A stretch of 64,000 nucleotides of DNA from Escherichia coli (GCF_003334335.1 NZ_QOWQ01000006.1); one strand, 5' to 3'; counted from the first letter of the stretch, positions 29,442-36,990 are shown. Numbers and translations are program-made. The notes: generated from the sequence alone by a model not told the origin.

Positions 29442-31337
<1,896 letters not shown>

Positions 31338-31384
31338 AGGAAAGAACATTGCCCGGTCAGGATGGCCGGGCAAACAAGGCAGGA

Positions 31385-31699
31385 TTAAATCCCTGGCTGC
31401 AGAATACGGATATTCATCTCCAGCACGTCACCTTTTACGGCTTCGCTATACGCCTTCATGTGCGGGGTTTGCAGATGCGCTTCAAGATGCGCGATGCTTT
31501 CCCACTGCTCAATCATCACGATAGAATCCGGTGCCATAGACTGGAAACTCACGCCAGCTGCGCAATCCACCATTGGCGCATAGCCGTGGCAACCTTCTTC
31601 TTTCAGTACGGTTGGAACGATTTTAGCAAACTGATCCAATACCGCCTGACGGTGATGTTGACCAGGACGAGTACGGATTTCTGCGATTACGGTAAGCAT
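31385..31699 (-). CDS. ygiN: quinol monooxygenase YgiN (ABM domain)
   Basis: 104 aa; synteny with mdaB. Confidence 0.85.
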   Translation of the reverse strand: MLTVIAEIRTRPGQHHRQAVLDQFAKIVPTVLKEEGCHGYAPMVDCAAGVSFQSMAPDSIVMIEQWESIAHLEAHLQTPHMKAYSEAVKGDVLEMNIRILQPGI

Positions 31700-31729: not shown

Positions 31730-32311
31730 TTAACCAAAAATTTCCACAAGATGCTTGCGATATTCTTCAGTATAGCGGGGAACATCAGGCATTTTTATCA
31801 CGTCATTAGCGATAAATGTCGGCAGCGGTTCCATACCGAGGAATTGGTTTGCTTTATGGAACGGCAGATACACACCGTCAACGCCAACGCCGTGGAAGAA
31901 CTGATCTTTTTCGGTGAAGGCTTCCATTGGTGCGTTCCAGGTCAGAGAAAGCATATATTTTTTGCCCTGTACCAGGCCGCCGGAACCGTATTTTTTCGAC
32001 GGATCTTTGCGGGTACGACCATCGCTGGCATACAGCGTCCCGTGACCTTCGGTGAATACATCATCAATGTATTTTTTCACTGTCCACGGCGCGCCCATCC
32101 ACCAGCCTGGCATCTGCCAGATCACCACATCAGCCCAGAGAAAGTTTTGTACTTCCGCTTTGACATCGTAGTCGCTGTCGGCGCGAACGATGCGGACATC
32201 ATGCCCAAGGTCGCGCAGTGTGCCATCCGCGACTTCGGTCAGGGTGTCGTTCAGTTGACCATTGGAGTGGGCGAATTTTTTCGCGCCGTTGATAATCAGG
32301 ATGTTGCTCAT
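31730..32311 (-). CDS. mdaB: NADPH:quinone oxidoreductase MdaB
   Basis: 193 aa flavodoxin-like protein. Confidence 0.9.
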   Translation of the reverse strand: MSNILIINGAKKFAHSNGQLNDTLTEVADGTLRDLGHDVRIVRADSDYDVKAEVQNFLWADVVIWQMPGWWMGAPWTVKKYIDDVFTEGHGTLYASDGRTRKDPSKKYGSGGLVQGKKYMLSLTWNAPMEAFTEKDQFFHGVGVDGVYLPFHKANQFLGMEPLPTFIANDVIKMPDVPRYTEEYRKHLVEIFG

Positions 32312-32629
32312 TTTTTAACCTCAAGGTGAGACGTTTGCCGACTATAGTACGTCACAGAGCGGTACGGTGAAATTAGCAAAATGTGCAAAGTCTTTTGCGA
32401 ATTTAGCAAAAGTCTGATCTTACTCTGACTCACCGATGCAGGATAAATATTTTCTGAAAATGACAATACTGATAGCCATTCCTCATAATTCTTACTCGCA
32501 CCGGAATAATTTACACGTTTGGTTCGGTTTTTTTGGGGATTGATAATATGGCTTTGAATAAGTAAAAGATGAAAGTATCAACGTGTCATGTTGATAATTA
32601 TAAATGGATTTTTATGAGCGTACTGATAT

Positions 32630-32962
32630 ATGTTAAAGCAGAAAATTAAAACAATATTTGAAGCATTGCTATATATAATGCTTACTTATTGGTTAATAGA
32701 TTCTTTTTTTGCTTTCAATAAGTATGACTGGATGCTTGAGTCGGGAGGAAATATTTGCAGTATACCTTCCGTTTCAGGCGAAGATCGTATATTGCAAGCA
32801 ATGATTGCAGCATTTTTTCTTCTTACGCCACTTATTATTCTTATCTTAAGAAAACTCTTTATGCGGGAAATGTTCGAGTTTTGGGTATATGTATTCTCGC
32901 TCGGTATTTGTCTGGTTTGTGGTTGGTGGCTTTTTTGGGGACGGTTTATATTTTGCTATTAG
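32630..32962 (+). CDS. ygiZ: small inner-membrane protein YgiZ
   Basis: 110 aa, multi-TM, AT-rich codon usage; synteny. Confidence 0.7.
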   Translation: MLKQKIKTIFEALLYIMLTYWLIDSFFAFNKYDWMLESGGNICSIPSVSGEDRILQAMIAAFFLLTPLIILILRKLFMREMFEFWVYVFSLGICLVCGWWLFWGRFIFCY

Positions 32963-33007
32963 TAAAATCTATGAGAGTCGTTTTAACGGCTCTCATAGAC
33001 AGAGAAG

Positions 33008-34357
33008 TTACCAGCTTACCTTCGCCTCAAATCCACCTTGTTCCGCATTCCCAAATTCAACATTCATGCCATGCAATTTGGCGATTCGCTGGACAATCGA
33101 TAGCCCAAGCCCGCTGCCGGTAGCGGTTTGTCCGGGTGGGCGATAGAAGCGTTCGCCAATTCGCGCCAGTGCCTCTGGTGTCACACCGGGGCCGTTATCC
33201 CTCACGATGAAATTATCAGCATTCAGCGTGACGTCTACCACGCTGCCCTGTGGACTGTAGCGCACGGCGTTATCCAGCAAATTTCGCACCAACAAACTTA
33301 GCAATAGCGGTTGCCCGGTGCGTTTGATGCTGTGGGCATTGAGTGTCAGTCGCACGTCAATTTTCGCCTGCTGCGCCGTGTGGTAAATATCCATCACCGA
33401 CGATTGCAGGAGATCTTCAAGCGGGATCTCCGCGACGTCCTGAAGGTTATCCAGTGAGTCCAGCCGCGATAGCGTGAGCAGTTGATCAACCAGACGAGTA
33501 GCGCGATCGATCCCGGAATGTAATTGGAGCAGTGCTTTTTTCCGCGCCTGCGGATCATCGTCAGAGAGCTGCGCAACTTCGGTTTGCACTTTCAGCGCCG
33601 TTAACGGGCTACGAAGTTCGTGAGCTGCGTCGGAGGTAAAGCGTCGTTCACGAACCATCATCGCATGTGTGCGGGCGAACAGTTGATTTAGCGACTCAAC
33701 CAGTGGCCGCACTTCGCTGGGTACGCCAGTCGCGTTTAGTGGTTTTTCCGAGTCAGGGTCACGCATACGTAGTGCCAGCGCCAGTTTGTTCAGCGGCGCG
33801 AGTTCACGACCCAGTAGTACCATCATGATGATTAACATAATCGGCAGTGCGACCAGCCACGGGATCAATTGCCCGGCAACAATCGCCAGCGCCATGTCTT
33901 CACGGTATTCCCATTCCTGGCCAACAACGATGCGATATTTGCCATCAGGTGAGGTCATCCAGACAAAACGCCAAGGATCGTCTTCACCGACCAGTTGCCC
34001 GTCAGCAAAACCTTCCCGTTGATAGCTATAGGGAATATCTTCTCCGTTATCGCCATCATTAAGGACCATTCTGCCGTCGTGGGTAAAGATGGCAAAGGTC
34101 AGCGCATCGTCATCAACATGACCGTGTTTTAATCTATTTGGCGTCTGTGCCATGCGATCCGCCGCGTTGATTTCGTTGAGATCGAGCGTACTTAACCGCT
34201 TGGCAAACAGCATCAGTTGGGTGTCGAACAATTCATCGACGTTATCCGTTGTTTGTTTCCAGGCGACAAAGCTGGAAAGCAGCCAGGTCACCGAGGCCAG
34301 AATTAAAAAGATTAGCGTCAGCCTGACGCGCAGACTAAGACGTTGGGTAAATTTCAT
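33008..34357 (-). CDS. qseC: two-component sensor histidine kinase QseC
   Basis: 449 aa with two TM segments, HAMP, H-box ([12 protein letters not shown]) and HATPase motifs. Confidence 0.9.
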
Positions 34358-35013
34358 TTCTCACCTAATGTGTAACCAATACCATGCACGGTACGAATAA
34401 AATCACTACCGAGTTTGCGTCGCAGATGATGCACATGCACTTCAACGGCATTACTGGTGACCTCTTCGTCCCAGGTATACAGTTTCTCTTCAATCAGTTT
34501 GCGCGGCAGTACCCGACCAGCGTTACGCATCAGTAATTCCAGCAGGGCAAATTCTTTTGGTTTCAGTGTTAAGGGTTCGCCAGCCAGCGTGGCGATACGT
34601 TTGCCGGGGTCGAGCATGACGTTACCGTGGCGCAGCTCGTTGCTGGCCTGGCCGTTGGTTCGGCGCATCAGAGCTTCCAGCCTGGCGGCGACTTCTATCA
34701 ACGCAAAAGGTTTACACAGATAATCGTCAGCTCCCAGACGCAGCCCTTCTACACGTTCCGCCAGCGCATCGCGCGCGGTCAGGATCAGTACCGGCTCACG
34801 CTGACCTTTTTCTCGCCATTCGCGCAAAATATCGCGACCATCCATGCCTGGTAAGGTTAAATCCAGGATCACCGCATCATAAGGTGCGCTATAAAGCGCC
34901 TCTTTTCCCTGACGACCTTGTGTAAACCAGTCGACGCTAAAACCCATTTTACTAAGGCCCGTTTTGATGCCGTCGCCAATCAGCATGTCATCTTCTATCA
35001 GTAAAATTCGCAT
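34354..35013 (-). CDS. qseB: OmpR-family response regulator QseB
   Basis: 219 aa starting MRILLIEDD; 4-bp overlap with qseC. Confidence 0.9.
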
Positions 35014-36296: not shown

Positions 36297-36593
36297 ATGG
36301 AAAAACGCACACCACATACACGTTTGAGTCAGGTTAAAAAACTTGTCAATGCCGGGCAAGTTCGTACAACACGTAGTGCCCTGTTAAATGCAGATGAGTT
36401 AGGTTTGGATTTTGATGGTATGTGTAATGTTATCATTGGATTATCAGAGAGCGACTTTTATAAAAGCATGACCACCTACTCTGATCATACTATCTGGCAG
36501 GATGTTTACAGACCCAGGCTTGTTACAGGCCAGGTTTATCTTAAAATTACGGTAATTCATGACGTACTGATCGTCTCGTTTAAGGAGAAGTAA
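36297..36593 (+). CDS. mqsR: type II toxin MqsR (mRNA interferase)
   Basis: 98 aa starting MEKRTPHTRLSQVKKLV; toxin precedes antitoxin. Confidence 0.9.
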   Translation: MEKRTPHTRLSQVKKLVNAGQVRTTRSALLNADELGLDFDGMCNVIIGLSESDFYKSMTTYSDHTIWQDVYRPRLVTGQVYLKITVIHDVLIVSFKEK

Positions 36594-36594
36594 T

Positions 36595-36990
36595 ATGAAA
36601 TGTCCGGTTTGCCACCAGGGAGAAATGGTTTCTGGCATTAAAGATATTCCATACACCTTCCGTGGACGAAAAACAGTATTGAAAGGTATCCACGGTTTAT
36701 ATTGTGTCCATTGCGAAGAGAGCATCATGAATAAAGAAGAGTCAGATGCTTTCATGGCGCAAGTAAAGGCATTTCGGGCTTCGGTGAATGCCGAAACAGT
36801 GGCACCTGAATTTATAGTGAAGGTTCGAAAAAAGCTCTCTCTTACCCAAAAAGAGGCAAGCGAAATTTTTGGGGGAGGTGTAAATGCGTTTTCGCGTTAC
36901 GAAAAAGGCAATGCCCAACCTCATCCTTCCACAATCAAACTTTTACGTGTTCTGGATAAGCATCCAGAACTATTGAATGAAATCCGTTAA
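36595..36990 (+). CDS. mqsA: type II antitoxin / transcriptional regulator MqsA
   Basis: 131 aa with N-terminal zinc-binding CxxC...CxxC (MKCPVCHQGEM...YCVHCEES) and C-terminal HTH-XRE domain; starts 1 nt after the mqsR stop. Confidence 0.9.
   Translation: MKCPVCHQGEMVSGIKDIPYTFRGRKTVLKGIHGLYCVHCEESIMNKEESDAFMAQVKAFRASVNAETVAPEFIVKVRKKLSLTQKEASEIFGGGVNAFSRYEKGNAQPHPSTIKLLRVLDKHPELLNEIR

Follow-up and report, generated by a model that had tools for sequence, protein, structure and literature searches.

Immunity genes of type VI secretion systems (T6SSs) can outlast their effectors, and such orphan copies are believed to shield a cell from kin in which the effector remains (PMC9796082; review PMC6730261). 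In the hcp islands of Pantoea agglomerans (PMC9796082) and in the orphan immunity arrays of Vibrio cholerae, an effector-immunity pair directly follows hcp. Here we describe an islet of the same order in Escherichia coli, and its ygiZ-only form in a 64,000-nucleotide stretch of E. coli DNA (GCF_003334335.1, NZ_QOWQ01000006.1; hereafter the window), where an AT-rich segment between mdaB and qseC holds the small gene ygiZ. Full islets at this site consist of hcp, a gene for a protein that we call X, and ygiZ. With moderate confidence, we interpret ygiZ as an orphan immunity gene of a T6SS Hcp-effector-immunity module and the AT-rich segment as a reduced hcp-X-ygiZ islet, an interpretation that rests on comparative genomics. 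The initial annotation of the window had proposed a horizontally acquired or nucleoid-protein-silenced insert at this site; that it is the remnant of such a module went unnoticed there and is, in our view, the best reading of it.

Results

Three allelic states between mdaB and qseC

In the window, ygiZ (32630-32962, plus strand) is an open reading frame (ORF) of 110 amino acids. It lies between two native flanks identified from their ORFs and from annotation, mdaB (31730-32311, minus strand; NADPH:quinone oxidoreductase) and the sensor kinase gene qseC (33008-34357, minus strand), and the window itself has neither hcp nor X. We searched 32312-33007 by megablast against 5,426 complete E. coli genomes, all of which gave a match, and took at least 80% query coverage to mark the ygiZ-only state of the window. 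This state was found in 3,330 genomes. Hcp and X DNA is present in 1,262 of the 5,426 genomes; in CE10, YP3, CFT073, Nissle 1917 and others, the full islet reads mdaB-Hcp (159 aa)-X (236 aa)-ygiZ-qseC. In strain 117, O157:H7 and others, the site is empty, with a gap of 109 bp between mdaB and qseC and no ygiZ. The empty junction reads ...AAAGTCT, then TACCC, then TTACCAGC..., and the exact 51-mer spanning it, by which this state was counted, occurs in 713 genomes. In Salmonella Typhimurium, 106 bp separate preB (qseC) and mdaB (PMC2653508), which agrees in size with the E. coli empty site. The presence/absence comparison suggested in the initial annotation thus revealed a site that is occupied in some genomes and empty in others.

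The left end of the islet (32416-32488, plus strand) also occurs, upstream of hcp, in full hcp-X-ygiZ islets and matches CE10 (L001:1419-1707) at 96.9% identity. In all, the window shares 32200-32488 (96.9%) and 32652-33100 (98.4%) with CE10, and the match of a B2 strain to the window begins at 32628. Where full islets have about 1.29 kb of hcp and X, the ygiZ-only arrangement has a spacer of 141 bp (32489-32629, plus strand). No remnant of hcp or X was found in this spacer with blastn at word size 7, tblastn, Smith-Waterman alignment against shuffled sequences or a six-frame search with hidden Markov models (HMMs): similarity to hcp-X DNA gave p = 0.14-0.73 against shuffles, and protein-level scores for Hcp, X and DUF2645 (the Pfam family of YgiZ) did not exceed 2.3 bits. 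With hcp and X traces missing, a recent internal deletion of a CE10-type islet is unsupported. The spacer also occurs, with indels, in the cryptic-clade Escherichia sp. E2593, which likewise carries ygiZ alone, and because it is common to this clade, the ygiZ-only state must be old. It may have arisen through a loss of hcp-X, or hcp-X may instead have taken the place of the spacer in full islets. We also considered a 24-nt direct repeat, GGTTTTTTTGGGGATTGATAATAT in the spacer (32526-32549) and GGCTTTTTTGGGGACGGTTTATAT at the 3' end of ygiZ (32928-32951), with 79% identity, as a trace of a second DUF2645 gene; given HMM scores of at most 2.3 bits and a low-complexity T/G run, it is probably a chance similarity.

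Two further observations concern individual E. coli records. IS1 lies inside the islet in some strains, within the mdaB-ygiZ spacer in SEC470 and within hcp in KL53 (NZ_CP007594.1 and NZ_CP030919.1), and decay of the module is therefore ongoing. A 353-kb E. coli plasmid record (NZ_MG591698.1:60214-60921) holds a copy of X at 99.6% identity, which represents either a plasmid-captured chromosomal region or a mis-assigned replicon.

Pairing of X and DUF2645 behind hcp in other genera

Close homologues of YgiZ are confined to Escherichia and Shigella, apart from a Citrobacter protein at 62% identity, and Citrobacter has an Hcp-X-DUF2645 trio at the same mdaB-qseC site. Homologues of X at 54-74% identity are found in Pectobacterium, Erwinia, Serratia and Chania. 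There the cassette lies between pagP and eamA (Pectobacterium), between a HAD hydrolase gene and yfbR (Erwinia), on a 75.6-kb plasmid (Serratia) or next to a transposase fragment (Chania, the only locus with one nearby). When 100,044 species, each represented by one genome, were scanned for the pattern, further cassettes emerged in Pseudocitrobacter, Buttiauxella and Citrobacter werkmanii and, in two copies, in a Serratia. At greater distance, plasmids of Rahnella and Serratia carry X-like genes of about 40% identity that are followed by annotated DUF2645 genes and have Hcp adjacent, and a metagenomic DUF2645 protein with 29% identity to YgiZ is preceded by Hcp and a 255-aa ORF.

When HMMs were applied to all ORFs, every X locus examined had DUF2645 directly 3' of X, on the same strand and at a junction of between -4 and +6 nt. 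Hcp lies directly 5' of X in nearly all of these loci, including those of E. coli, Citrobacter, Pseudocitrobacter, Pectobacterium, Serratia, Chania, Buttiauxella and Rahnella. No promoter upstream of hcp is conserved across genera; conservation is limited to the ORFs. In most hosts the GC content of the cassette is 10-20 points below that of its flanks, the exceptions being the Serratia plasmid and Chania. The DUF2645 family has only 28 representatives among 1.84 billion clusters at 50% identity in an exhaustive profile search, and its full-length members largely coincide with X-linked cassette loci, although at least one other copy is solitary. Such a tight pairing of X and DUF2645, independent of context and placed after an additional hcp, is what typically marks an Hcp-borne effector and its immunity protein.

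Two sets of divergent copies deserve mention. Serratia sp. H1w has two cassettes (L022:3507-5058 and L024:2904-4448) whose X proteins share 57% and 63% identity with E. coli X, which hints at diversification into distinct specificity types. On plasmid pA137-2 of Cronobacter dublinensis (L030:2483-3452), an unannotated 98-aa ORF comes after an X-like gene of 36% identity, and no Hcp was found within 2.5 kb of the X-like gene. The two genes may represent a remote effector-immunity pair within the same superfamily, although as a case of pairing they are weaker.

Predicted fold of X

The islet Hcp is a full-length TssD protein (TIGR03344, 198 bits). X, taken from CE10 (L001:2262-2969), has 236 aa and is devoid of an N-terminal hydrophobic segment, a signal peptide and a lipobox. 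Its structural model suggests a lytic-transglycosylase/lysozyme-like fold, with fold-search matches to MltE (score 10.1), Slt (10.0), the T6SS effector Tse3 in its complex with Tsi3 (9.5), MltC (9.5), Slt70 (9.1), g-type lysozyme (8.6) and Tge2 (6.2). A Foldseek search of AFDB50 returned further uncharacterised relatives from enterobacteria and Pseudomonas, and placed the same fold at the C terminus of proteins with PAAR, RHS or eCIS domains, which are the usual carriers of polymorphic toxins. The residues W80-I81-E82, G114, Q119 and Y188-N189-R190-G191 are invariant in the alignment of X, and we take these motifs to resemble the ES, GLMQ and AYNxG motifs of family-1 lytic transglycosylases. 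Judging from its invariance, Glu82 of the WIE motif is likely to be the catalytic acid. The toxin-type fold of X and the persistence of an intact ygiZ where X is absent both support an effector-immunity assignment.

Predicted topology of YgiZ, selective constraint and age

YgiZ had been described as a small multi-transmembrane protein rich in F, L, I and W, and these four residues indeed make up 48 of its 110 positions (44%), with three hydrophobic helices. It matches Pfam PF10840 (DUF2645) with E = 1.3e-9, residues 13-109 aligning to positions 5-98 of the 98-position model, and RefSeq labels it a DUF2645 family protein. An AlphaFold2 (AF2) model with a predicted local distance difference test (pLDDT) score of 83 places helices at residues 2-27, 50-77 and 81-107. 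The N terminus and the loop at 74-81 are basic and the loop at 30-56 is acidic, a positive-inside pattern. YgiZ is thus predicted to be an inner-membrane protein with its N terminus inside and its C terminus outside, and with two periplasmic parts, the loop at 28-49 and the C-terminal tail. The loop cysteine C43 and the tail cysteine C109 do not vary among 13 diverse members of the family, and a position on the periplasmic side is predicted for each. No structural match to YgiZ was found in the PDB.

The window's YgiZ is 93% identical to the CE10 protein encoded 3' of X. Its ORF is intact, and the ratio of nonsynonymous to synonymous substitution rates (dN/dS) is 0.26-0.34 in all Escherichia comparisons, including that between K-12-type and cryptic-clade alleles, both of which stand alone (dS 0.25). 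For the same strain pairs, dS of ygiZ is of the same order as dS of mdaB and qseC; relative to Citrobacter, it is about 1.0-1.1 for ygiZ, 0.85-0.98 for mdaB and about 1.7-1.9 for qseC. Because dS of ygiZ tracks that of its flanks, the genes have diverged together for a long time, and the islet is an old polymorphic accessory element, not a recent import. If the effector-immunity assignment is correct, the window's ygiZ has the features of an orphan immunity gene, namely an effector-linked homologue, neither hcp nor X upstream, an intact reading frame and selective constraint.

Composition and boundaries of the insert

The region from mdaB through ygiZ had been singled out as markedly AT-rich relative to its flanks, and sliding-window GC content bears this out: GC is 0.349 over 32312-32962 against 0.507 for the whole window, a value reached by only 0.45% of all 651-bp windows (z = -3.2). 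The mdaB-ygiZ spacer, estimated earlier at about 320 bp, measures 318 bp and has a GC of 0.355; the ygiZ coding sequence has 0.342, and a 200-bp profile falls to a minimum of 0.28 at the locus. The islet as a whole has a GC of 0.34 against 0.51-0.54 in its flanks. GC content and codon usage also differ from those of neighbouring genes at the level of synonymous choice. GC at the three codon positions of ygiZ is 0.37, 0.33 and 0.33, and GC at the third position (GC3) is 0.51-0.59 in six neighbour genes (mdaB: GC 0.505, GC3 0.58). Under the codon usage of its neighbours, the synonymous codons of ygiZ have a mean log-likelihood of -1.468 against an expected -1.007 +/- 0.055 (z = -8.4), and none of 5000 simulations gave a value as low. 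Together with its presence/absence in E. coli and the unrelated contexts of the cassette elsewhere, composition and codon usage uphold the earlier proposal of a horizontally acquired insert.

The limits of that insert had to be redrawn. The interval first proposed, 32312-32962, stands from 32416 onward, whereas its first 104 bp (32312-32415, GC 0.404) are native DNA upstream of mdaB, since strains that lack ygiZ have them too, at 97-100% identity; they are also conserved in Citrobacter. On the other side, the insert continues to 33007. The accessory segment thus spans 32416-33007 (592 bp, GC 0.341), in place of which empty-site E. coli have the 5 nt TACCC. It begins directly after a near-perfect palindrome, AGTCTTTTGCGAA-T-TTAGCAAAAGTCT (32389-32415), with which the native region ends. 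A direct repeat, GAAATTAGCAAAA and GAATTTAGCAAAA, also lies in the native DNA (within 32369-32415), and both it and the palindrome are conserved in Citrobacter. The palindrome may serve as an operator for mdaB-ygiN, which is PreA/QseB-activated in Salmonella.

At the right end, a hairpin (32968-32999) with 15-nt arms, 93% complementary, and a 2-nt loop lies inside the insert between the convergent ygiZ and qseC genes and is absent from the empty site. It is probably a bidirectional terminator, and was missed by a scan for consensus terminators because it has no T-run. Searches of the window gave no integrase, transposase or tRNA target marking the islet ends, nor were any convincing terminal inverted repeats or target-site duplications seen at the islet junctions; the islet has probably spread via homologous recombination of its flanks. 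No Rfam match to a structured RNA was found in the region at E <= 1.

Neighbouring genes and other accessory loci

The 20 kb around the ygiZ locus are 100% identical to many complete genomes, and the ORF map and the RefSeq annotation of the identical locus give parE (29445-31337, plus strand) and ygiN (31385-31699, minus strand) on the mdaB side; the ORF map places qseB (34354-35013, minus strand) beyond qseC. The parE-ygiN junction (31338-31384) is a second polymorphic insertion site about 1 kb from that of ygiZ. Where the window has parE, genes for a FecCD-type iron-siderophore ATP-binding cassette (ABC) transporter and a MurR/RpiR regulator precede ygiN in strain 117, YP3 and cryptic-clade Escherichia (L002:1-3029, L014:1-583 and L015:1-2664). 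The remaining 651-bp windows of low GC are located at about 13.5-21 kb and 36.1 kb, with a minimum of 0.33 near 19,077. Offsets from an annotated genome of identical sequence match them to the yqiI-yqiH-usher-ygiL fimbrial cluster (about 14,480-19,430) and the mqsR/mqsA toxin-antitoxin pair (about 36,300-36,990), which are thus further AT-rich loci of accessory type in the same 64 kb.

Discussion

Our results favour a model in which ygiZ is what the window retains of an Hcp-effector-immunity module, along with a BglJ-RcsB-responsive promoter region and the terminator hairpin. In strains with a full islet, the extra Hcp tube protein would carry X, which is predicted to be cytoplasmic, and the T6SS would deliver it to the periplasm of a neighbouring cell, where X would cut the glycan strands of peptidoglycan. 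YgiZ in the inner membrane, with its periplasmic loop (28-49), its C-terminal tail and a possible C43-C109 disulfide, would neutralise X and thereby protect the producer and its kin. A cell such as that of the window, which has no X, would be protected by ygiZ against X-armed E. coli, Citrobacter and similar neighbours. The K-12 and B laboratory strains have no T6SS and CFT073 has one (PMC6730261), which fits an immunity-only role of the ygiZ-only state.

Several points weigh against this interpretation. Secretion of X, its toxicity and protection by YgiZ are all predictions from genome comparison. X has no match in Pfam (including the SLT family, even at E <= 10) or NCBIfam, nor any among PDB sequences in phmmer and profile searches, and the modelled segments 86-113, which adjoin the putative catalytic Glu, have pLDDT below 50. 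The known immunity proteins against T6SS peptidoglycan glycosidases, Tsi3 and Tgi, are soluble periplasmic proteins or lipoproteins, not polytopic ones. With dN/dS near 0.3, ygiZ is under no more than moderate constraint, and its published phenotypes are generic envelope effects. Finally, the spacer is free of hcp and X traces and common to the cryptic clade, so that a loss of hcp-X is just one possibility.

The published work on ygiZ could also point to a different role, in which it is an acquired small envelope-stress membrane protein of the Rcs/BglJ regulon with a task of its own, for instance in membrane integrity or solvent tolerance, and its linkage to Hcp and X is incidental or unrelated to immunity. 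BglJ-RcsB activates the ygiZ promoter, a mutated site abolishes activation, and the core motif is wwTTCykA, with the ygiZ site at -65 to -68; the H-NS tests in the same study concern other loci, not ygiZ (PMC3950696). The nucleoid-protein silencing proposed in the initial annotation would suit the AT-rich DNA of the segment. In the window, TTTTCTGA (32450-32457) fits this core and is followed 51 bp 3' by a -10-like AATAAT (32505-32510), and we infer that it is the candidate BglJ-RcsB box. A promoter scan also marked a promoter-like site, ATGACA-N18-CATAAT, at 32460-32489 and a second one at 32569-32598 in the 141-bp spacer. ygiZ was 27-fold up in a sabinene-adapted strain, and its overexpression raises sabinene tolerance (PMC7181518); its deletion improves Ca2+ chemical transformation, according to a citation in PMC12844161. 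That ygiZ alone is the majority state in E. coli, and an old one, also suits such a role. However, overexpression phenotypes of small membrane proteins are non-specific, 13% of E. coli and Salmonella Typhimurium do without ygiZ, and the tiny DUF2645 family is found outside Escherichia almost only directly after X. The same box, with the same spacing to a TATTAT, is present upstream of hcp in YP3, and a similar box occurs in Citrobacter. Full islets share the stretch that contains this putative box, and BglJ-RcsB may therefore regulate the module as a whole. On balance, we consider an envelope-stress role without immunity rather unlikely.

X could also serve the cell that makes it, as a peptidoglycan-remodelling enzyme for assembly of its own T6SS, comparable to MltE in the Sci-1 T6SS of enteroaggregative E. 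coli (EAEC), VirB1 in type IV secretion systems (T4SSs) and EtgA in type III secretion systems (T3SSs). YgiZ would then be its membrane partner or regulator, and the window's ygiZ a functionless or re-purposed leftover. The fold of X is compatible with such an enzyme, but X has neither signal peptide nor lipobox and so cannot reach the producer's periplasm by Sec. The module, which includes an additional hcp, is self-contained and remote from T6SS core clusters, and some copies lie on plasmids. Fusion of the X fold to PAAR and RHS carriers is typical of toxins, effector-immunity pairs are marked by tight coupling of the kind seen in the X-ygiZ bicistron, whose stop and start codons overlap, and ygiZ is intact under purifying selection in lineages without X. 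We therefore judge this explanation quite improbable.

A lysozyme-fold enzyme without a signal peptide next to a small protein with three transmembrane helices also recalls an endolysin-holin-like lysis pair for phage or bacteriocin release, of which ygiZ would be the holin remnant. X does match PHROG family 11932, whose function is unassigned there (E = 1.7e-29). Nevertheless, a tblastn search of 50,697 phage genomes gave no match to X, a weak profile match to phiKZ gp034 (E = 0.36) was not significant, and the PHROG members may stem from mis-delimited prophages. A phage origin of X is thus unbacked by any phage genome match. Phage genes flank none of the cassette loci, the order is enzyme and then membrane protein with Hcp first, and a holin left on its own would do nothing for the cell or damage it, whereas 61% of E. 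coli conserve ygiZ. A lysis pair accordingly seems very improbable. That the low GC merely reflects the AT bias of intergenic DNA and the amino acids of a hydrophobic protein (F, I, L, K, N and Y) deserves next to no credence: membrane proteins and intergenic DNA are AT-biased, and the native 104 bp beside mdaB have only 40% GC, but the GC3 and codon-choice deviation, the absence of the segment from 713 E. coli genomes and the low GC of the cassette in most hosts already refute it.

If ygiZ is indeed an orphan immunity gene, a K-12 y-gene so far without a function in the best-studied bacterium would gain a concrete role. Its assignment would define a new X/DUF2645 effector-immunity family, represented in uropathogenic and probiotic E. 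coli (CFT073 and Nissle 1917) and in plant-associated Enterobacterales, with an unusual polytopic membrane protein guarding against a cell-wall glycosidase. It would also mean that the K-12-type strains routinely used as "naive prey" resist a weapon carried by Citrobacter and by B2/F E. coli (CFT073, Nissle 1917), so that T6SS competition between E. coli strains would be measured with a hidden bias wherever such prey are used. The three states, weapon and antidote, antidote only or neither, across 5,426 genomes would provide a natural system for studying a within-species arms race. The stronger claim that DUF2645 is a new family of polytopic inner-membrane immunity proteins directed against a new Hcp-borne toxin of lytic-transglycosylase fold, and that most E. 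coli are thereby resistant, we regard as evenly balanced.

Full-text searches of the literature returned no mention of DUF2645 and no paper joining Hcp, mdaB and qseC, and none of the 23 papers naming ygiZ appears T6SS-related, judged by title and abstract. A paper on Hcp in avian pathogenic E. coli (APEC; PMC5874247) and a preprint on Shiga toxin-producing E. coli (STEC), considered as sources on the mdaB-qseC hcp gene, concern other hcp loci. As a kind of element, T6SS effector-immunity islets that include orphan immunity genes are well known; what appears to be new is this family and its assignment.

Among described systems, the Tge/Tgi pairs, such as Tse3-Tsi3 of Pseudomonas aeruginosa and Tge2-Tgi2 of P. 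protegens, come close in the proposed activity, but X has no detectable sequence similarity to them, its fold is nearer to that of family-1 lytic transglycosylases (with MltE and Slt as the top matches), and it resides in a free-standing three-gene Hcp islet with a three-helix DUF2645 partner, whereas theirs are soluble periplasmic proteins or lipoproteins. Relative to the GH23 family-1 lytic transglycosylases themselves (MltE, Slt70 and MltC), X is set apart by the want of a Pfam SLT match and of an export signal, and by its toxin-module context. The immunity proteins of the pore-forming colicins E1 and Ia are about 110 aa long with three or four transmembrane helices, and act at the inner membrane on membrane-inserted pore domains. 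YgiZ resembles them in size and in its transmembrane helices, although its cognate X has the fold of a wall-targeting enzyme. A parallel in gene order exists with the hcp islands, from which the ygiZ islet differs in its position outside any T6SS cluster, alone between housekeeping genes, and in the presence of orphan ygiZ in the strains K-12 and B, which according to published work lack a T6SS altogether.

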